Below, one piece after another: positions 1 through 8,867 of a stretch of DNA of 64,000 nt. Made by a program: the position numbers and the translations under genes. Every line of letters begins with the position of its first letter. Position 1 is the first letter of the stretch. This DNA comes from an uncultured bacterium (GTDB taxonomy: Bacteria > Acidobacteriota > Thermoanaerobaculia > Multivoradales > JAHZIX01), in the NCBI GenBank assembly GCA_965368975.1, contig CBDUPA010000023.1, positions 1-64,000 on the forward strand. The letters run 5' to 3'. The notes beneath the pieces were generated by a model, which was not told the origin of the DNA, did not search any database, and was given only the letters and a program-made list of their open reading frames with translations.

Positions 1-78
1 TGTTCCTGGATGGGCTGTACGGGTTGTTCCTGGATGGGCTGTACGGGTTGTTCCTGGATAGGCTGTTCCTGTACGGGC
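1..78. repeat. 24-bp/15-bp tandem repeats encoding QPIQEQPV
   Basis: tgttcctggatgggctgtacgggt x2 plus degenerate copies. Confidence 0.85.
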
Positions 79-1226
79 TCTTCTGGCATTGGCTCCATTT
101 GCAGTGTCACGGGCTGTGCTGCGGCCACGACCGGTGCCTCTTCGGCCATCTCGGCTCCGGCGGGCGGAATGGGTGCGCGCGTGGCGACCACGCTCTGTGG
201 GTCGTTGTGATGGCTCCACAGGGTCTCGCCGGCGCTGGCGGCGGGCAGGGTTGCGGTAGCGTCCGGATCGAAGATGGCCATCGGCAGCTCGAGACGAGCG
301 ACGCGCAGCAGTTGCCACTTCCACATTTCCTGGCCATTCTGCAGACGCCAGCGGCGCAGCGGCATGTCGTCGAGCACGGCATACGGATTGACGTCGTCGC
401 CGTCGACCGGCGGAGCGATGCCGCGTTCGATGCTGGCGGTCAGGCGACGCAGGCGTACGGCGCGGTCGGTGACGCGACTGAGCCGCGACAAGAGGTCGCG
501 CGCCCAGACGGGAATGCCGGTCTCAGCCGCCGGTACCGTGCAGGCTCGCGAGACCTCACGCCGCTGCCGGCTGCCGTCAGAGGTCAGGCGCTCGCGCTCC
601 AGGCCGACCAGCCGGCAGGGCTGATCGTCGGTGTCCATGTCGAGGATTTCCTCCGGGGACAGTTCGCGCGTGTAGACCTCGTTGTAGCTGGTCAGGTAGT
701 GGCGATAAGCGGTGATGCGGGCCAGGATGTTCGCCTGCTGCGTGGCTTCCAGCTGCGCGGCCATGGTCTCGGACTCGTCCATCTGCTGTGCCAGCGTCGC
801 TTCCGCGAGCTCGATCATGCGCGCGCGGATTTCGGTCACCTCGCCGGTCTGTCGCTGGATCACCAGGAAGCGGTCTGGGTCGGCGAGGAAGATCAGGCTC
901 AGGTTGTCGACACTGCCCGTTGCCTGCGGTCCGGCTGTGCTGCTCGAAACGGTGTGCCCATCCAGGCGCATGTGCCCGGGAACCAGCAAGCCCAAGACTT
1001 CCGTCACGTCGCCGCCGCCCTCGCTCAGGTCGCTTTCCCGCCAGGTGATGAGCAGGCCTTCGGTGGTCTGCGCGCTGTCCAGCGTCGCGGGCTCCGCCTG
1101 GGGCTCCGCCTGGGCCGTGGCCGGGCCTGTCGAGGACCACGGTGCGGCCAGCAGGAGCGCGACGGTGGCAGCGGCGAAAGGACGGAGCAGAGACGGACAT
1201 CGGGGTAGGCAAGACTGGAGCATCAT
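1..1226 (-). CDS. Secreted hypothetical protein (3' end outside window) with Q/P/E-rich repeat linker
   Basis: Not in the ORF track because it has no stop in the window. Manual translation from ATG 1226 gives MMLQSCLPRCPSLLRPFAAATVALLLAAPWSSTGPATAQAEP..., open to position 1. It has a signal-peptide-like N-terminus and EPVQEQPIQEQPVQPIQE repeats. Confidence 0.7.
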   Translation of the reverse strand, partial: MMLQSCLPRCPSLLRPFAAATVALLLAAPWSSTGPATAQAEPQAEPATLDSAQTTEGLLITWRESDLSEGGGDVTEVLGLLVPGHMRLDGHTVSSSTAGPQATGSVDNLSLIFLADPDRFLVIQRQTGEVTEIRARMIELAEATLAQQMDESETMAAQLEATQQANILARITAYRHYLTSYNEVYTRELSPEEILDMDTDDQPCRLVGLERERLTSDGSRQRREVSRACTVPAAETGIPVWARDLLSRLSRVTDRAVRLRRLTASIERGIAPPVDGDDVNPYAVLDDMPLRRWRLQNGQEMWKWQLLRVARLELPMAIFDPDATATLPAASAGETLWSHHNDPQSVVATRAPIPPAGAEMAEEAPVVAAAQPVTLQMEPMPEEPVQEQPIQEQPVQPIQEQPVQPIQE

Positions 1227-1298
1227 GGGCACATTCTATACCGCCCGCACCTGATACCGCTGGCGGCAGACCGTTGTCGCCGCGCGTGCTGCACACGG

Positions 1299-1357: not shown

Positions 1358-1567
1358 ACCTCGAGGTCCAGCAGCCTCCACGTCTCAACTCTACGTTGAC
1401 TCCTACCTTCATACTCCTGCTCTGAGCCTGCGACCCGGTGCCCACGCAGGTCGGCGAAGAGACCTATGCACAAGATCTTGGTTCATGCCCAGACCACGTT
1501 TCCTCCGCCCCCGCCGAGCCCTGTTCGCGGCCAGAGCCTCGACCGTGGCATGGTATCTTCAACCCTG

Positions 1568-2251
1568 ATGAGCGACCCTCGAATCTTCGTGGTGGAAGAC
1601 GAGCCGGACATCGCCGATGTACTGCGCTACAACCTGGAACGCGAAGGCTTCCAGGTCCAGGTCTATACCCGCGGCGACACCGCTTTGGAAGCGATCCGCG
1701 CCGAGATGCCAAACCTTCTGCTGCTCGACTTGCAACTGCCCGGGCTCAGTGGCCTGGAGCTGACGCGTCTGCTCAAGCGGGAGGAAAGCTTCGCCCGCCT
1801 GCCAGTGGTGATGCTGACAGCACGCAGCGACGAGGTCGACCGCATCGTCGGCTTCGAACTAGGTGCGGACGACTACATCAGCAAGCCCTTCAGCCCGCGG
1901 GAAGTGGTGCTGCGCGTCAAGGCGGTTCTGCGGCGCGCCAAGGCCGCGGCCGGCAAACAAGAAGCCCTGTCGGTCGGCGGTATCGTGCTCGACGTGCCCG
2001 GCCATCGCCTGTCCATCGACGGGCAAGAGGTTACCCTCACCGCCACCGAGTTCCGGTTGCTCAGACTGCTCATGGAACGGGCTGGCCGGGTGCAGACGCG
2101 CACTCAGCTGTTGTCGGACGTCTGGGGCTACGCCGAGGATGTCGACAGCCGTACCGTCGATACCCACATTCGCCGCTTGCGCCGCAAGCTGGGCGGCGAA
2201 GCGGAGCGCATCGAGACGGTGGTGGGCGTCGGCTACCGTCTGCGCGTGTGA
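1568..2251 (+). CDS. phoB: OmpR/PhoB-family response regulator
   Basis: Receiver domain (VVEDE, LLDLQLP, GADDYISKPF) plus winged helix (LTATEFRLL, RTVDTHIRRLRRKL, IETVVGVGY). Start trimmed to ATG 1568. Confidence 0.85.
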   Translation: MSDPRIFVVEDEPDIADVLRYNLEREGFQVQVYTRGDTALEAIRAEMPNLLLLDLQLPGLSGLELTRLLKREESFARLPVVMLTARSDEVDRIVGFELGADDYISKPFSPREVVLRVKAVLRRAKAAAGKQEALSVGGIVLDVPGHRLSIDGQEVTLTATEFRLLRLLMERAGRVQTRTQLLSDVWGYAEDVDSRTVDTHIRRLRRKLGGEAERIETVVGVGYRLRV

Positions 2252-2263
2252 AAGGAGGGCCGC

Positions 2264-4096
2264 GTGAGGCCCTTCCCCTTCTTTCGCTTACGCCTGACTA
2301 GCCTGTGGCCCGCTGTCGCGGCCTTGACGGCGGCGAGTGTTCTGCTGGGCTGGTGGCTGCTGCCGGACTTGGTGCAGCGCAACGCGGAAGAGCACTTGCT
2401 CGACTGGGTGCAAATCCTGACGCCGGTTGCTGCCGAGCAAGGGGCTGCTGAGCAAGGGGCCGACGAGCAAGGGGCCGACGAGTCGCGGCAGCTGCAGGCC
2501 TGGGTAGAGGAGTTGACGCGCAGCGGCACCCTACGCCTGACCGTCATCCGTGACGACGGCTTGGTGCTGGCCGACAGCGATCAGAGCTGGCAGGCTGTGC
2601 AGACGATGGACAATCACGCCGGCCGGCCCGAAGTCGCCAGCGCGCTCCAGGACGGCAGTGGTGCCGCTACCCGCACGTCGAAGACGACCGGTCTGGCCTA
2701 CGTCTATGCCGCGCGTGCCTATAGCGCCGGCAACCGCCGCCTGATCTTGCGCGTCGCCAAGCCGCTGCGGGACCTCGACCTGCTGCGCAATCGGTTGCTA
2801 CAAACGACCGCGGCGGCGGCGGCGCTCGGCCTGCTCGTGCTGGCGCTGACCTACTGGCGTCTCGACTCGCGTTTCTTCCGGCCGCTGAGCCAATTGCTCG
2901 ATGCCGCCGATCGGTTGGGCGGCGAGGAGCAGCAACAGCTGGAGCTGCCGCAGCAGCTCGACCTGGCACGGCTGGCGGCGGCGCTCAACCGGCTGGACCG
3001 GCGTGTCCATGAGCAGTTGGCGACGCTGCAGGACGAGCGCGACCACCTGCAGCGCATCCTCGCCAGCATGCACGAAGGCGTCCTGGTCACCGATCGTTCC
3101 GGCCGCGCACGCCTGGCCAACCAGGCCTTCCTGCGCCTCTTCCGGTTGGTCGATGCGGACTCGGTGATCGGACGCTTGCCGCTGGAACTCAGCCGCCAGC
3201 GCCAGCTGGCAGAGGTCATCGAAGCTTCGTTGTCGGGAACGGGGGAGTCTCAGCCGGAGCAGATCCTGGAAACGCCGCGCGACCGGGTTTTGGCGCTGAC
3301 CGGGACGGCATTGACCGGGGCTTCGTCCGTCGCTGGCGCGGCGGAGGTGGCAGGCGCCGTCGTGGTGGCGCGCGACATCACAGAGCAACAGCGGCTGACC
3401 CGGATGCGTCGCGACTTCGTGGCCAATGTCTCGCACGAGCTGAAGACGCCGCTGGCGGCCATCCGTGGCTACGCCGAGACGCTGCGCGACGGTGCCCTCG
3501 AAGACAAGCCGGCCGCCGAGCGCTTCACCGATCGCATCCTCGTCCAGTGCCAGCGCCTGCAGGTGCTGCTCGAGGACTTGCTGACGCTGTCACGCTTGGA
3601 AAGCGTGGCGCAGCAGCCGGACCTGGATCCTGTCGATCTGGTGCGTCTGGCCGAGCGCACCGCCGAGCTGGTGGTGCCGGTGGCGCAGGAGCAGAACGTC
3701 GAGCTGGCGCTGGCCCTGGAGCCGGTGCCGGCGATCGTCGGAATCCACAACGATCTCGAACGCTTGCTGCTCAACCTGTTGCACAACGCCATCAAGTACA
3801 ACCGTGCCGGCGGGCGTGTGACCTTGCGTCTGGCGCCGGTCGGCGACCAGGTATGCCTGGAAGTCGAGGACAGTGGCATCGGTATCCCGGTCGAGGTCCA
3901 GCCGCGGATCTTCGAGCGCTTCTATCGGGTCGACAAGGACCGCTCGCGCAGCGCCGGTGGTACAGGGCTGGGCTTGTCGATCGTCAAGCACATCGTGCAG
4001 GCGCACGAGGGGACGTTGGAAGTCGAGAGTACGCTCGGTGTTGGCTCGCGGTTCCGAGTCCTGCTGCCGATCGAGCCGCTCCAGCGTCCGGCCTGA
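2264..4096 (+). CDS. phoR: PhoR-like sensor histidine kinase (2 TM, HAMP, PAS, HisKA, HATPase)
   Basis: MDNHAGRPEV periplasmic motif, DFVANVSHELKTPL H-box, NLLHNAIKY, FERFYRVDKDRSR, GGTGLGLSIVKH. Confidence 0.85.
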   Translation: MRPFPFFRLRLTSLWPAVAALTAASVLLGWWLLPDLVQRNAEEHLLDWVQILTPVAAEQGAAEQGADEQGADESRQLQAWVEELTRSGTLRLTVIRDDGLVLADSDQSWQAVQTMDNHAGRPEVASALQDGSGAATRTSKTTGLAYVYAARAYSAGNRRLILRVAKPLRDLDLLRNRLLQTTAAAAALGLLVLALTYWRLDSRFFRPLSQLLDAADRLGGEEQQQLELPQQLDLARLAAALNRLDRRVHEQLATLQDERDHLQRILASMHEGVLVTDRSGRARLANQAFLRLFRLVDADSVIGRLPLELSRQRQLAEVIEASLSGTGESQPEQILETPRDRVLALTGTALTGASSVAGAAEVAGAVVVARDITEQQRLTRMRRDFVANVSHELKTPLAAIRGYAETLRDGALEDKPAAERFTDRILVQCQRLQVLLEDLLTLSRLESVAQQPDLDPVDLVRLAERTAELVVPVAQEQNVELALALEPVPAIVGIHNDLERLLLNLLHNAIKYNRAGGRVTLRLAPVGDQVCLEVEDSGIGIPVEVQPRIFERFYRVDKDRSRSAGGTGLGLSIVKHIVQAHEGTLEVESTLGVGSRFRVLLPIEPLQRPA

Positions 4097-4249: not shown

Positions 4250-5584
4250 ATGCCTGCTGACGACACTGTTGACTGTCCTGGCCCGGAAGAACTCGCCGAG
4301 CTGCTGGCGCATCGCCAGTCCCAGATCGCCGAAACTCCGGAGCCGATCCGAAACCTCCTGCAGCGCCTGGACCATTGGTTGCAGAGCTGTTCCACGTGCA
4401 AGCGCAACCTGCGCGAGATCCAGTACTGGCAGCGCGTGGTGGCGCATCCCGATCCACGCATCGCGGTACGGGAGTACCCGCGCATTCGCGAGCTGTGGTC
4501 GCGCCTCGAAGGACTCACGCCGCGCCAGCTGACCGAGAGGCTCGACGGACCGGCGCTGCGCGAGTTCGTGGAGCCGTGTCGCTGGGCGTTGGCGCAGCGC
4601 CTGCTGCGCGAGAGTCAGTCGACCGTCTCCTTCGACTACGAGCGCGCGTGCGAATTCGCCGAACTCTCCATCGCCCTCGTCATGCTCCTGCCGGTCGAAG
4701 AGTACGGCGAAGTGCCGCTGCGCGATCTGGAGATCCAGGCTCTGGCCTGCGCGGGCAATGCCCAGCGCGTCGGGGACCAGTTGAACGAGGCGCGCCTGCA
4801 CTTTGACCAGGCCCTGCGACGCATCGAGCGTCGACCACCGGTGCCGCTGCCCACGCAAGCCATGGTGGCGGACCTCTTCGGTTCCTTGCTGCGCGACATG
4901 CGCGAACTGCACGAGGCCGAGCAGACCTGGCTGCGGGCGGTGACCCTCTACCTGCACTTCGACGACCGGTCGATGGCCGGCAAGGTGCACCTCAACCTGG
5001 GCAACGTCTCCGAACTGCGCGGTGAGTTGCACTGCGGTGTGCGCTACCTGCGCAAGGCGCAGGGGTTGGTCGATCCGGGCTCGGATCCTTCCCTCTACGG
5101 CATCTGCCACCAGCACCTGCTCTACTTCTGCACCGAGGTCGAACTCCTCGACGAAGCGGAAGCGCTGTTGCCCCGCGTGCGCCGGCTGTGGCACCGCATG
5201 CGGCACCAGCACAATCTGGCGCTCACCCACTGGGTCGAGGGCCGTATCCGGCAGGCGCGCGGGGAGCTGGAAGAAGCCGAACGTATCTTCCGCGTGCTGA
5301 TCCGGACGTTCCATCGCCAGCATCGACCCTACGAAGTAGCCCTGCTCCACCTCGACCTTTCGGCCTTGTCGGCGGAGCAGGGCGATCTGGAGCACGCTCG
5401 AGATCTGGCGTCGCAGGCCTGCGCGACGCTCCAGCTGCTGCATGTCCCGAAGCAGGTCGAGTCGGCGCTGCAAGCCCTGGTCGATCTGGTCGAGACGGAA
5501 GAACTGACCGCGAACGCCTTGCGGGCGAGTCTGAAGCGGCTCCAGCGGATCGTGCGTGCGTCTCAAGATCCTCTGGTGCTATGA
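4250..5584 (+). CDS. Cytoplasmic TPR-like helical-repeat protein with N-terminal H-x4-C-x2-C knuckle
   Basis: HWLQSCSTC near the N-terminus; helical repeats (ALACAGNAQRVGDQLNEARLHF, KVHLNLGNV, EGRIRQARGELEEAE); no signal peptide. Start set at ATG 4250. Confidence 0.75.
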   Translation: MPADDTVDCPGPEELAELLAHRQSQIAETPEPIRNLLQRLDHWLQSCSTCKRNLREIQYWQRVVAHPDPRIAVREYPRIRELWSRLEGLTPRQLTERLDGPALREFVEPCRWALAQRLLRESQSTVSFDYERACEFAELSIALVMLLPVEEYGEVPLRDLEIQALACAGNAQRVGDQLNEARLHFDQALRRIERRPPVPLPTQAMVADLFGSLLRDMRELHEAEQTWLRAVTLYLHFDDRSMAGKVHLNLGNVSELRGELHCGVRYLRKAQGLVDPGSDPSLYGICHQHLLYFCTEVELLDEAEALLPRVRRLWHRMRHQHNLALTHWVEGRIRQARGELEEAERIFRVLIRTFHRQHRPYEVALLHLDLSALSAEQGDLEHARDLASQACATLQLLHVPKQVESALQALVDLVETEELTANALRASLKRLQRIVRASQDPLVL

Positions 5585-5616
5585 AGCGAACCTTGGATCT
5601 TGCGGCCGCCTACGGC

Positions 5617-5859
5617 TCAGCCGTTGGGGTCGATCATGGCACTTCGGCCGTTGGGGTCGATCATGGCACTGCGGCCGTTGGGGTCGATCATGGCACTGCG
5701 GCCGTTGGGATCGATCATCGCGCTGCGCGCCGCGCTGACAGCTGGGCTCGCCGGCACGTTGTTCGGGGCGGCAACCGCGGGCAGGGCGCACAGGGCTGAG
5801 CAGCAGACGGTCAAGGCCAGGGTGATCGCGGTGCGGAACAGGTGGGTGGTAGTGAACAT
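5617..5859 (-). CDS. Small secreted repeat prepropeptide (4x RSAMIDPNG)
   Basis: AAGGAGAG RBS; Sec signal ending ...LPAVA|A; four identical nonapeptides, the last ending exactly at the stop codon. Confidence 0.8.
   Translation of the reverse strand: MFTTTHLFRTAITLALTVCCSALCALPAVAAPNNVPASPAVSAARSAMIDPNGRSAMIDPNGRSAMIDPNGRSAMIDPNG
5620..5727. repeat. 27-bp tandem repeat x4 (coding)
   Basis: gccgttggggtcgatcatggcactgcg units; differences between copies are synonymous in the minus-strand frame. Confidence 0.95.
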
Positions 5860-6104
5860 GGTTGTACTCTCCTTGCAGGGTTCTGGTCATCTCCAGGCGG
5901 ACCCGAGTAGCTGAGATGTCCGACTTTCGATAGCCAATGTCTATTTTTCCGCAACAGAACAAAGATTGCGCTCTCTGTATCGATTGCAGGGTCTAACTCC
6001 TTCTTTTCAGAAAAAAGATAGGTTTCTGGCCCTTGCTTGTCAACTCGTCTGTGGATGGGGCGCTACAGCCGCGGAATCCAGGTAGGTTGCGTATACTGCC
6101 GGGC

Positions 6105-6896
6105 ATGAAAATCACGAGAGATCTGCCGTCTTTGGTGACTGGCGCTTCCTCTGGCATCGGCCGTGAGATCGCGCTCCAACTCGGCCGCCGAGGTTGCCGC
6201 GTGGCCCTGCTTGCTCGCTCGCGGGAGGCACTGGAAGCCGTCGCCCAAGAAGTCGAACAGGCGGGAGGGCAGGCTCTCGTCTTGCCCACGGATGTCACTC
6301 AGGAGGAGCAGGTCGCGGAGGCGGTACGACAAGCGGTCGAGCGCTTCGACGGTCTGCGGCTGGTGATCGCCAACGCTGGGCTGGGGCGCTATGGCCTGAT
6401 CGAAGAGCAACCCGCCGAGCATGTCGAGACCACCATCCTGACGAACTACGCCGGTCTCACTCGCGTCGTGCGCCACGCTCTGCCGCACCTGCTCGCGGCG
6501 ACCCCCGCGCATATCGTTGGCGTCACCTCTTCCGCCGGCCTCATCCCGCACCGCCTGGCCTCGGCCTACTGCGCCTCCAAGGCCGCCAGCAATGCCTACC
6601 TGGCGACACTGCGCCTGGAGGTCCTGGATCGCGGCGTTGGCGTCAGCTGGATCTGTCCAGGCCTGGTCGAGACTCCTTTCGTCGGCAAGGCGGATCTGGA
6701 TCCCGAGAAGGATCTACCGCTGCTGGCGCGCCTCCTGGTGCGGCCGTTGCAGCCCGAAGCCGTTGCTCGCGCCACGCTGCGGGCCGTCGAGCGAGGGCAG
6801 GGCGAGGTCGTGATGCCTCGGATGATGCGCTTCTTCGCCTGGACGCGACGCCTCGCCCCGGCGACGGCGGACTGGCTGAATCGCAAGACGGGATGA
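6105..6896 (+). CDS. Short-chain dehydrogenase/reductase
   Basis: VTGASSGIG, NAG, catalytic YCASK. Confidence 0.92.
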   Translation: MKITRDLPSLVTGASSGIGREIALQLGRRGCRVALLARSREALEAVAQEVEQAGGQALVLPTDVTQEEQVAEAVRQAVERFDGLRLVIANAGLGRYGLIEEQPAEHVETTILTNYAGLTRVVRHALPHLLAATPAHIVGVTSSAGLIPHRLASAYCASKAASNAYLATLRLEVLDRGVGVSWICPGLVETPFVGKADLDPEKDLPLLARLLVRPLQPEAVARATLRAVERGQGEVVMPRMMRFFAWTRRLAPATADWLNRKTG

Positions 6897-6940
6897 GTCG
6901 GGCCCGCCGCAAGCTCCTGACGGCTTGATAGACTTGGTAG

Positions 6941-7474
6941 ATGAAATTCGAAGTCGAAAATGTGTTTCCTACCTCGCCCGAAGAGGTCGCCCAAGCGGTC
7001 TTGGATGTCGAGTTCCAGGCTGAGTTGTACGAGGCTCTGGAGTACCCCCGCTGGCAGGAGACGAGCCGCACCGAGGAAGCGGACGGTGGTCTGCACCGGA
7101 CTCTCGAAGTGACACCACCGGTGGCACTGCCGGGTTTCATCCGCTCCGCGCTCGGCGACGCCACGGGTTACGGCGAGTCGCAGGTCTGGGCACCGGATCG
7201 TCTGTCCTACGCCTGGGACGTCGACTTCGAGCTCTCCTCTCGCATCGAGATGACCGGCCGCTGTACCTTCGAGCCTTGTGAGGTCGACGGTGGCGATGGT
7301 TGCCGGCGGGTGATTCGGGCCGAAGTCAAGGTCGGCATCCCGCTGCTCGGCGGTCGCATCGCCGCCTACCTGCGCGACGAGACGGTGAAGACGCAGACGG
7401 AAGCTGCAGAGGGGCTGGCCCAGTCGATGGCAGCGTCGCTGGCAGCGTCGCTGGCAGAGGGCTTGGCCGAGTAG
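6941..7474 (+). CDS. DUF2505 / START-like fold protein
   Basis: Size and C-terminal ...IRAEVKVGIPLLGGRIA motif typical of DUF2505. Confidence 0.65.
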   Translation: MKFEVENVFPTSPEEVAQAVLDVEFQAELYEALEYPRWQETSRTEEADGGLHRTLEVTPPVALPGFIRSALGDATGYGESQVWAPDRLSYAWDVDFELSSRIEMTGRCTFEPCEVDGGDGCRRVIRAEVKVGIPLLGGRIAAYLRDETVKTQTEAAEGLAQSMAASLAASLAEGLAE

Positions 7475-7502
7475 GCCCGGTGGTCGCCCAAAGGGAATTA
7501 TC

Positions 7503-8867
7503 ATGAGTGCCCACAAGCTCAGTGCGGTCGACAGCGCCTGGTTGCGCATGGAGGACCCCACCAACCTGATGACCATCACAGGCGTGATGACCTTCCGGGG
7601 GGTGGTGGAGTTCCAGCGCATCAAGCGGCTGATCGAAGACAAGCTGCTGGATCACCCGCGCTTCCGCCGCAAGGTGGTCGAAGCACGCTTCGGCGGGCCG
7701 CGCTGGCAGGACGACGACTACTTCGCCCTCAGTCATCACCTGCACCGCACCGCCTTGCCCAGCGAGGGCGGCAAGGAGCAGCTCGAGGAGCTGGTCAGCA
7801 GCCTGATGAGCACGCCGCTCGACTACGCGCGTCCCTTGTGGCAGTTTCACTTCATCGACAACTTTCAGGGCGGTTCGGCGCTGGTGCTGCGCGTGCACCA
7901 CTGCATTGGCGACGGCATGAGCTTGATGCAGGTGACGCTCGATCTCGCCGATGCGCAGAACGAAGCGTCCGCTGCGGTCGGTCATGCTGGCCGCCCACCC
8001 GGCGGCGACTCACCCGGAAGAGGCCAACCTGGCAGTAGCAAGCGCTCGCTCACCGAGACGCTGCTGCATGAAGGCGCCCAGGTGCTCGCCGACCCCGGCC
8101 GTATCCTGGACTTGTGGAAGACCGGCGGCGAAGCGGCGCGCGTGCTCGGCCGCCTGGTGGCCCTGCCCGCGGACACGCCGACCCCCTTGCGTGGTCGGCT
8201 CGGCACCCAGAAGCGTTGTGTCTGGTCCCGCCCCATCTCTCTACAGGGGGTCAAGGACATCGGCAAGGTGCTGGGGGCCACCGTCAACGATGTGCTGATG
8301 TCCGCTGTAGCCGGTGCCTTGCGCCGCTACCTCGTCGGCCGTGGACACACTCCGTCCGCCGACATGCGTGTCGTCGTGCCGGTGAACCTGCGCCCGCTCG
8401 ACGACCTCAGTCTGGGCAACAAGTTCGGGCTCGTCTTTCTCGCCCTGCCCGTGGGCGTCGAGGACCCGCGCGAACGCCTGCGGCAGACCAAGGAACGCAT
8501 GGACGCGATCAAGGAGTCTCCCGAGGCCTTCGTCGCCTTTGGCGTGCTGCAGGCCCTCGGCATGACCACCGCCGAGATCGAAGAGATGGTGCTCAACCTC
8601 TTCGGGCAGAAAGCCACCGGCGTCGCCACCAATGTTCCCGGCCCGCGTTCGCCGCTGCAACTCGCCGGCAGCGAGGTCGACGGGCTGATGTTCTGGGTGC
8701 CGCAGAGCGGGCGTCTCGGCCTGGGAATCAGCGTGCTCAGCTACAGTGGGCAGGTCCGCATCGGCATCGCGACGGACACGGGCCTGGCGCCGGATCCACA
8801 TTCGATCGTCGAGGGCTACCACCTGGCGCTGGAAGAGCTGATGGCGACCGCCGAAGCAGCCTCCTAG
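7503..8867 (+). CDS. Wax ester synthase / diacylglycerol acyltransferase (WS/DGAT)
   Basis: LSAVDSAWLRME, PLW, catalytic HHCIGDG, TVNDV, TNVPGP, SYSG. Confidence 0.93.
   Translation: MSAHKLSAVDSAWLRMEDPTNLMTITGVMTFRGVVEFQRIKRLIEDKLLDHPRFRRKVVEARFGGPRWQDDDYFALSHHLHRTALPSEGGKEQLEELVSSLMSTPLDYARPLWQFHFIDNFQGGSALVLRVHHCIGDGMSLMQVTLDLADAQNEASAAVGHAGRPPGGDSPGRGQPGSSKRSLTETLLHEGAQVLADPGRILDLWKTGGEAARVLGRLVALPADTPTPLRGRLGTQKRCVWSRPISLQGVKDIGKVLGATVNDVLMSAVAGALRRYLVGRGHTPSADMRVVVPVNLRPLDDLSLGNKFGLVFLALPVGVEDPRERLRQTKERMDAIKESPEAFVAFGVLQALGMTTAEIEEMVLNLFGQKATGVATNVPGPRSPLQLAGSEVDGLMFWVPQSGRLGLGISVLSYSGQVRIGIATDTGLAPDPHSIVEGYHLALEELMATAEAAS

Follow-up and report, generated by a model that had tools for sequence, protein, structure and literature searches.

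Cytoplasmic receptors built of tetratricopeptide repeats (TPRs) that respond to ribosomally made peptide signals are described, in the literature as excerpted, in Bacillota and their mobile elements. One signature of such RRNPP systems (PMC10075063, as excerpted) comprises a propeptide of 10-100 aa, its export (Sec as predicted by SignalP, or PptAB type), a receptor of 250-500 aa, TPRs in this receptor, and a distance of -60 to 400 bp between the neighbouring genes. Tandem copies of the pheromone occur in Rap systems (PMC11343458, as excerpted). Here we describe a gene pair of similar organization from an uncultured bacterium (GTDB lineage Acidobacteriota; Thermoanaerobaculia; Multivoradales; JAHZIX01), found in a stretch of 64,000 nucleotides that we call the window (assembly GCA_965368975.1, contig CBDUPA010000023.1, positions 1 to 64,000). 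A gene for a TPR protein with a His/Cys head converges there on a small gene for a putatively exported precursor, which ends in four identical nonamers, RSAMIDPNG. Conservation of the two genes side by side is best explained if they form one module.

The head of the TPR protein brings to mind a different set of described systems, the zinc-binding anti-sigma (ZAS) domains (zf-HC2) of RsiW and RslA. RsrA and ChrR are further zinc-binding anti-sigma factors. In actinomycete lantibiotic clusters, namely those of microbisporicin (MibX/MibW) and planosporicin (PspX/PspW), the peptide is reportedly thought to free the sigma factor, which results in feed-forward control.

The pair resembles Rap-Phr and other RRNPP(A) systems in that a small, putatively Sec-type propeptide, whose active part would be C-terminal and sometimes in tandem, is encoded next to a cytoplasmic TPR protein, the candidate receptor. 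A DNA-binding domain is absent from Rap and likewise from the TPR protein, which would exert its effect by holding a second protein; unlike in Rap, its head is a His/Cys zinc-type domain and not a three-helix bundle or helix-turn-helix (HTH). Many paralogous pairs per genome, and one copy in a prophage-like region, are further common features. On the other hand, RRNPP(A) systems belong to Bacillota and phages, whereas the present host is a diderm acidobacterium; no sequence homology of the receptors was found, the usual order here is peptide before receptor or convergent, and the DP(N/D)G core is common to all paralogues.

With ZAS proteins the head shares an N-terminal helical domain in which His and Cys-x2-Cys are conserved and which has a His or Cys upstream of them, and, in a subset of the family, a gene for a sigma factor with extracytoplasmic function (ECF) that lies immediately upstream and overlaps. 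It differs from them in being part of a soluble protein, with a 340-residue TPR body instead of a transmembrane/periplasmic part, and in its H-x4-C-x2-C spacing. The MibX/MibW and PspX/PspW clusters are reported also to encode a ribosomal peptide together with a sigma/anti-sigma pair, but there a membrane anti-sigma factor is said to sense the peptide outside and the peptides are said to be heavily modified; here the candidate is a cytoplasmic TPR protein and there is no modification cluster. LGN/Pins and MalT-type TPR sensors have a similar superhelix, and the inner groove of such proteins accommodates extended peptides, but they are eukaryotic polarity proteins or STAND ATPases, so that the fold is common and the function is not. 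In the literature searched (supplementary files were outside its scope), we found no published description of the peptide-TPR pair and no paper joining RRNPP with Acidobacteria or Acidobacteriota; matches to "IDPNG", judged by title and start of the abstract, were irrelevant.

Structure of the convergent gene pair

Features of the pair are as follows (positions in the window, strand, evidence):

4250-5584, plus strand: gene for a 444-aa soluble protein with Cys/His head and TPR superhelix, putative peptide receptor and anti-sigma-like regulator (open reading frame (ORF), Pfam TPR_MalT, AlphaFold2)
4250-4549, plus strand: N-terminal head, residues 1-100, with the look of a divergent ZAS-type (zf-HC2-like) domain (conserved Cys/His)
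4274-4276, 4373-4375, 4388-4390 and 4397-4399, plus strand: head residues C9, H42, C47 and C50
4550-5560, plus strand: TPR superhelix, residues ~101-437, roughly 8 helix pairs, holding Asn170 and Arg173 (secondary structure of the model)
5585-5616, no strand: gap of 32 bp separating the two convergent stop codons (ORF coordinates)
5617-5859, minus strand: gene for the 80-aa precursor peptide (ORF; G+C at third codon positions 0.84; motif-bearing relatives in metagenomes and elsewhere in this genome)
5770-5859, minus strand: putative Sec-type signal peptide, residues 1-30, predicted cut after AVA (sequence by inspection and hydropathy)
5728-5769, minus strand: spacer rich in Ala, Pro and Ser, residues 31-44 (14 residues; translation)
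5620-5727, minus strand: four identical copies of RSAMIDPNG, residues 45-80, putative mature signal units, the last abutting the stop codon (Tandem Repeats Finder and translation)
5867-5874, minus strand: ribosome-binding site AAGGAGAG, 7 nt 5' of the ATG (upstream sequence)
6015-6043, minus strand: promoter-like TTGACA-17-TATCTT upstream of the peptide gene (consensus match only)

The precursor starts with a charged N-terminus, followed by a hydrophobic core of ~20 residues and a site between AVA and AP; Kyte-Doolittle 11-residue means reach 1.9-2.3 across residues 11-31. The repeat tract (5620-5732) has a 27-nt period, 4.1 copies and 94% matches in Tandem Repeats Finder. Four DNA sites vary among the four copies, all of them at third codon positions and all synonymous. 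Since only 18 of the 81 single-base changes available per repeat unit are silent, the chance of four silent ones in a row is ~0.002, a rough value that ignores gene conversion. No family was found above threshold for the window peptide in Pfam or NCBIfam, where matches are sub-threshold only. The consensus scan that located the promoter-like sequence gave one site against 0.2 expected in shuffles, and no terminator-like site was found in the 32-bp gap.

An initial annotation, made from the letters of the sequence, had described most of this organization. Translation bears out the 80-aa ORF with its signal-like start, Ala/Pro spacer and four RSAMIDPNG copies up to the stop; the ribosome-binding site is located 7 nt ahead of the ATG (AAGGAGAG), and all four variable sites (4/4) are silent, as had been claimed for the differences between copies. 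Coordinates and translation likewise agree with the convergent arrangement across a 32-bp gap and with the H-x4-C-x2-C knuckle.

The ATG of the 444-aa frame agrees with the start point of orthologues. The TPR protein matches Pfam TPR_MalT (50.8 bits against a cut-off of 45, E 1.9e-13), does not match RRNPP families in Pfam or NCBIfam, and has no hydrophobic segment (top 19-residue hydropathy 1.28). Its AlphaFold2 model is all-alpha, with predicted local distance difference test (pLDDT) 91.7. In Foldseek the best solved matches of this model are LGN/Pins TPRs (E 4e-7, TM score 0.54-0.57, ~350 columns); RapF, RapJ and a phage Rap with bound pheromones appear at E 2e-5 to 1.5e-4, RapF (4i9c) at rank 27 below LGN/Pins with E 2.4e-5 and TM score 0.45. 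Two residues of the groove region, Asn170 and Arg173, are at least 90% conserved family-wide, and the TPR body also keeps a Trp at 90% or more (100 family representatives). Co-folding of the full-length TPR protein with precursor residues 31-80, run without controls, scored 0.00 and weighs neither way on binding.

Set beside the RRNPP signature of PMC10075063 (as excerpted), the pair has a propeptide of 80 aa, a receptor candidate of 444 aa with TPRs, and convergent neighbours 32 bp apart. For export, the fifth criterion, the n-region, the ~20-residue core and the AVA/AP site were recognized by inspection and hydropathy only. The RRNPP architecture that the initial annotation proposed is thus upheld in the computable criteria of this signature, with export by inspection, but no homology to RRNPP receptors was found beyond likeness of the generic TPR fold, with LGN/Pins ranking above Rap.

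Linkage of peptide and TPR genes

The host genome (7.13 Mb in 59 contigs) contains 20 short (≤520 aa) relatives of the window TPR protein. When all six frames of this genome were searched for the strict motif [ILVMFY]DP[ND]G, 69 loci with 93 occurrences were obtained, whereas the reversed sequence of the genome gave 46 occurrences. At ten of these 69 loci the motif is no more than 800 bp away from one of the 20 TPR genes; 0.31 such loci would be expected (Poisson P 1.7e-12). ORFs with a hydrophobic-DPxG motif neighbour 14 of the 20 TPR genes, in 11 cases upstream on the same strand and in three convergently; the convergent pairs are those of the window and of contigs C28 and C7.

We then looked at the same association in relatives. 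TPR relatives occur in all five other genomes of the family, 7-14 in each at E ≤1e-8. Among the 30 loci returned from these genomes, a strict-motif ORF is present within 800 bp at 15, against 0/30 in reversed DNA; of these 15 ORFs two seem questionable, and at one locus such an ORF is the only one. Orthologues of the window TPR protein are found in four genera with 31-33% identity. A convergent downstream motif peptide with signal peptide is kept in three of the four orthologous loci, one of these peptides carrying three copies of RGSFVDPNG and two being single-unit; the fourth locus is without it. Synteny analysis around the four orthologous pairs revealed nothing conserved besides the pair itself.

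The order-level set consists of 29 of the 30 best loci, the locus of the present genome being left out; five of them repeat same-family loci. Upstream motif ORFs on the same strand are present at 19 of the 29 loci and at none (0/29) in reversed DNA. Counting only the loci outside the family, 16 of 24 have a motif ORF, and a wider look raises this number to 22 of 24, with three additional DPxG loci and three loci with three copies of GIQIDGNG, a Pro-to-Gly variant. As three independent linkage sets, each with its own control, point in the same direction, the pairing cannot be ascribed to chance. The initial annotation itself had proposed to test whether DPNG peptides are linked in genomes to this TPR family; among paralogues, and likewise across genera and families within the order, the answer is strongly positive.

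Distribution of the TPR family was examined with a family profile. It matches at E ≤1e-40 in 75 of 101 genomes of the order, many of them with at least 16 copies, and gives no match in two families of the order (0/11 and 0/10 genomes). In a phylum sample of 151 genomes at least 90% complete, seven genomes matched at E ≤1e-40, namely the present one, two in the order and four in the class (1e-43 to 1e-48), and no genome outside the class did. At least 5,200 cluster representatives (50% identity) match at E ≤1e-30 in a library of 1.84 billion proteins; the best 150 representatives are mostly 430-470 aa long.

Multi-unit peptides other than that of the window are found in this genome on contig C6 (three units), contig C1 (two units) and contig C7, where a ~200-aa frame with 17-18 units is followed by a one-unit peptide. 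The tandem 9-residue DP[ND]G pattern has 18 matches in this genome, none in the five other same-family genomes (0/5) and one or two, probably by chance, in each of 7 among 400 other genomes of the phylum. These counts indicate that the exact 27-nt phasing is specific to this genome, relatives using other spacings or single units.

On contig C7 (252985-255307; locus L017:6986-9269) a gene for a 469-aa protein of the TPR family converges on the two peptide genes. The region contains matches to phage families phrog_2045, 3193 and 1761/5120 and to the endolysin phrog_894 / Peptidase_M15. By analogy with arbitrium, the C7 pair could be a prophage-borne copy.

Several other genes were observed around the paralogous loci. 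In two small ORFs, C12:226619-226858 and C21:93192-93395 (both minus strand), a basic, Leu-rich leader of the double-glycine type, with GG at its end, is combined with a Cys-rich tail. The TPR paralogue near each of them has a DPxG ORF of its own as well; the Cys-rich products are a further, second kind of exported peptide there. Pentapeptide-repeat proteins (L017:11187-12245 and L019:8089-8994, both minus strand; Pfam 4e-27 and 1.4e-33) are encoded in the vicinity of two multi-unit peptide loci out of four. The contig C1 locus (~682 kb), one of these, is without TPR neighbour and lies beside a VapBC-like pair. Just upstream of the C6 pair, L018:338-8162 (C6:257337-265161) contains genes for a 1072-aa CHAT-domain protein and a trypsin-like peptidase and three genes without Pfam family. 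C44:3858-5005 and C1:306531-307235, which have the look of XRE-type HTH proteins, are located beside TPR paralogues without clear motif peptide, and the metagenome relative P0017 is an XRE HTH fused to the same TPR type.

The window pair itself is surrounded by genes of a two-component system, SDR, DUF2505 and WS/DGAT. A response regulator of the OmpR/PhoB type, together with a PAS histidine kinase (1466-4096, plus strand), is encoded directly upstream of the TPR gene across a gap of 153 bp; neither is conserved beside orthologues. On the other side, a short-chain dehydrogenase, DUF2505 and a WS/DGAT wax-ester/triacylglycerol synthase stand in a row (6033-8867, plus strand) as a possible storage-lipid cluster. 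A 410-aa ORF (3-1232, minus strand) has a signal-like start, no Pfam family and short repeats rich in Pro, Gln and Glu that run off the end of the window.

The nonamer, the head and neighbouring sigma-factor genes

In a typical precursor of the order, the signal peptide is followed by an amphipathic helix with Trp, then by a linker and 1-6 units; the window precursor is without the helix. From 81 units at 32 loci we derived the consensus [A28/R20]-[G52/S25]-x-x-hydrophobic-D81-[P68/G13]-[N52/D22]-G81, with counts to which the 18-unit protein and related genomes contribute disproportionately. D and G of the core are invariant (81/81), and Gly or Ser occupies position -7 in 77 of the 81 units. 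The window nonamer RSAMIDPNG corresponds to this family-wide unit residue for residue. Its Arg is present at the same position in only 20 of the 81 units, so cleavage at Arg, which the initial annotation had suggested, does not hold as a general rule. The last unit abuts the stop codon in 11 of 32 precursors. Many members of the family are single-unit peptides of 25-50 aa, and metagenome relatives have (G)AMIDP(N/D)G units, in one case behind a double-glycine leader. Pfam and NCBIfam cover neither the 212-aa C7 frame (sub-threshold matches only) nor 12 precursor frames of the order level (none above threshold).

The window TPR protein carries the knuckle H42-x4-C47-x2-C50 in its head. C9, W43, C47 and C50 are invariant in all six orthogroup sequences, and C47 and C50 in all 15 heads aligned. 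In family numbering, H5, H30, C35 and C38 (H...H-x4-C-x2-C) are conserved at 90% or more among 100 family representatives; in the window orthogroup an N-terminal Cys (C9) stands in place of the first His. The Pfam anti-sigma zinc finger zf-HC2 (PF13490) matches seven of the 100 representatives at E ≤0.01 (best 2.8e-4) and none of 18 heads from same-family genomes, even at E ≤1. The ZAS motif H-x3-C-x2-C is not present as such, the spacing here being H-x4-C-x2-C. A head profile compared with PDB sequences gave 13 weak matches, including RsiW (E 0.12) and RslA (E 0.3), these two aligned on the motif.

The head model has pLDDT 85.2. A wide VIA-align search found no structural match for it at Z ≥5; the cytoplasmic anti-sigma domain of PupR (5cam_A) aligned with Z 4.4 and a root-mean-square deviation of 2.6, over 53 residues of a 55-residue chain. 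For residues 1-110 the ESM Atlas returned a best score of 0.78, for small Acidobacteriota proteins, 13-40% of them with zf-HC2; this score is under the meaningful level and is taken as a lead only. Some TPR paralogues of same-family genomes (loci L060, L070, L071 and L077) have two H-L-x3-C-x2-C motifs in the head.

Sigma-factor genes were surveyed at 21 order-level loci, where 46 of 74 flanking frames were scanned. At eight of these loci, an ECF-type sigma gene (Sigma70_r2 with or without r4_2) lies immediately upstream of the TPR gene or overlaps it. Both sigma-TPR and sigma-peptide-TPR operons are observed in the relatives: the order sigma-peptide-TPR is found in at least four of the eight sigma loci (L095, L097-L099), and locus L087 has sigma, then peptide, then a frame leaving the locus edge. 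In the present genome, an ECF sigma gene adjoins the TPR gene of the contig C2 locus, with a motif peptide gene ahead of the sigma gene. The ECF classification paper (PMC7826278) considers it probable that there are soluble anti-sigma factors which have escaped detection; its excerpted text mentions TPRs only as an extension of ECF42 and for an FecR-like factor of ECF267.

A possible peptide-controlled switch and its alternatives

Linkage of the genes, the C-terminal nonamer and the TPR body of peptide-binding type together fit a ligand-receptor pair. The reading that we prefer, giving it slightly less than an even chance, is that the TPR protein is a peptide-responsive, anti-sigma-like receptor with RRNPP-like logic. 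The precursor would be exported through Sec and cut into nonamers ending in ...DPNG-COOH, which would build up outside the cell and then re-enter. Inside, they would bind in the TPR groove, and binding would alter the grip of the head on an ECF sigma factor or another partner, so that a regulon is switched. As to the output, release of a sigma factor is suggested both by the head, which is anti-sigma-like, and by the sigma-peptide-TPR operons. Five genes for OppA-type binding proteins in this genome offer a possible import route, one that is not specific to the pair.

A wider proposal, which we consider doubtful, is quorum sensing or kin signalling throughout the order in diderm Acidobacteriota. 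A soluble anti-sigma factor would then serve as intracellular pheromone receptor, ...DP(N/D)G nonamers would free an ECF sigma factor, each genome would have ~16 private channels, with arbitrium-like prophage copies, and RRNPP logic with sigma output would have been invented independently.

Several observations weigh against a receptor of this kind. The near-uniform DP(N/D)G core of the paralogues leaves only ~4 residues for specificity among ~16 channels per genome, and several family peptides are without obvious signal peptide. We know of no precedent for re-entry of such peptides across two membranes. Likeness of the modelled fold to Rap is generic to peptide-binding TPR proteins and no sign of kinship. 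The anti-sigma character of the knuckle, put forward in the initial annotation, is backed at family level by the seven zf-HC2 matches among 100 representatives and by the ECF sigma genes directly upstream at 8 of 21 loci, but the window protein itself neither matches zf-HC2 nor has a sigma neighbour. None of the 32 Sigma70_r2 matches of the genome is on the window's contig, and only one of the 20 TPR paralogues, that on contig C2, adjoins a sigma gene. H42 is kept in only two of the six orthogroup members, the knuckle His being lost in the other four, and the PupR match to the head is tied with unrelated helical proteins.

The main rival, which we regard as unlikely, holds that the peptide is an exported effector (antimicrobial, metal- or calcium-binding, or acting at the surface) and that the TPR protein, with or without sigma factor, is its dedicated regulator sensing something else. 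Sigma-peptide-TPR operons would co-transcribe the peptide with its regulators, as for bacteriocin and lantibiotic genes, and a double-glycine leader such as that of the one metagenome relative is typical of bacteriocin-like peptides. Near-invariance of D-P-(N/D)-G is more readily reconciled with one chemical or structural role common to all than with a multitude of private signals, and a protein with 17-18 units in ~200 aa resembles a repeat protein more than a pheromone precursor. However, a cytoplasmic TPR sensor without other input domain would be left without evident ligand, and no immunity, transporter or modification gene is conserved beside the pairs. One-to-one pairing across ~16 paralogues per genome, and units that are uniform inside a precursor and different between precursors, are what ligand-receptor pairs would display. 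Distinctly improbable, in our view, is that the TPR protein serves in the cytoplasm as chaperone, adaptor for export or scaffold for maturation and binds the unexported precursor, for instance its Trp-containing helix. It is true that this amphipathic helix is conserved between signal peptide and repeats in most precursors of the order, that peptides without signal peptide could remain in the cytoplasm, and that TPR proteins are often chaperones. Nevertheless, the window precursor is paired with a TPR protein in spite of having no such helix, the conserved part is the C-terminal nonamer, and a length of 440 aa is far above that of known TPR secretion chaperones; the anti-sigma-like head and upstream sigma genes indicate regulation.

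Tandem identical cores behind a leader-like N-terminal part, together with the chemical reactivity of Asx-Gly junctions, might also suggest a multi-core precursor of a ribosomally synthesized and post-translationally modified peptide (RiPP), in which DP(N/D)G would be modified (Asn-Gly succinimide or isoAsp, Asx cyclisation) by enzymes encoded elsewhere. We give this alternative, already raised in the initial annotation, a slim chance: a conserved modifying enzyme was seen neither next to the window pair nor at the four orthologous loci nor at the 21 order loci (46/74 frames scanned), the cores have no Cys, Ser or Thr patterns, and the scanned precursor frames (window, 212-aa C7 frame and 12 of the order level) are without above-threshold family match. 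Least credible of all is a coincidence, with a periplasmic structural repeat protein encoded beside an unrelated TPR gene. The nine-residue period does recall the beta-roll of RTX type, the nonapeptide consensus of which is GGxGxDxUx. RSAMIDPNG lies outside this consensus, though, and the window peptide gave no match at E ≤0.1 to Pfam HemolysinCabind or calcium-binding repeats; many family members are single units of 25-50 aa, and the three independent controlled linkage sets oppose chance. A cis-acting leader peptide (upstream ORF) was considered as well and is ruled out, because the window orthogroup is convergent and the peptides have signal peptides and repeats.

Returning to the receptor reading, the pair may serve bacteria that have two membranes as a gene switch under peptide control. 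Regardless of function, it belongs to a very large unnamed peptide-plus-TPR module, which reaches 16 or more copies per genome and, as far as genomes were sampled, occurs only in a single order of an abundant but poorly cultured soil phylum. Should the peptides prove to be effectors, the family still represents a new class of secreted nonapeptides that can be put to the test. If they are signals, they would constitute the first peptide-pheromone family of such type in diderm bacteria, and ECF sigma factors would be subject to a new kind of control, via a soluble TPR anti-sigma factor with a peptide ligand. Through the module, social behaviour and the decisions of prophages in Acidobacteriota would then become accessible.

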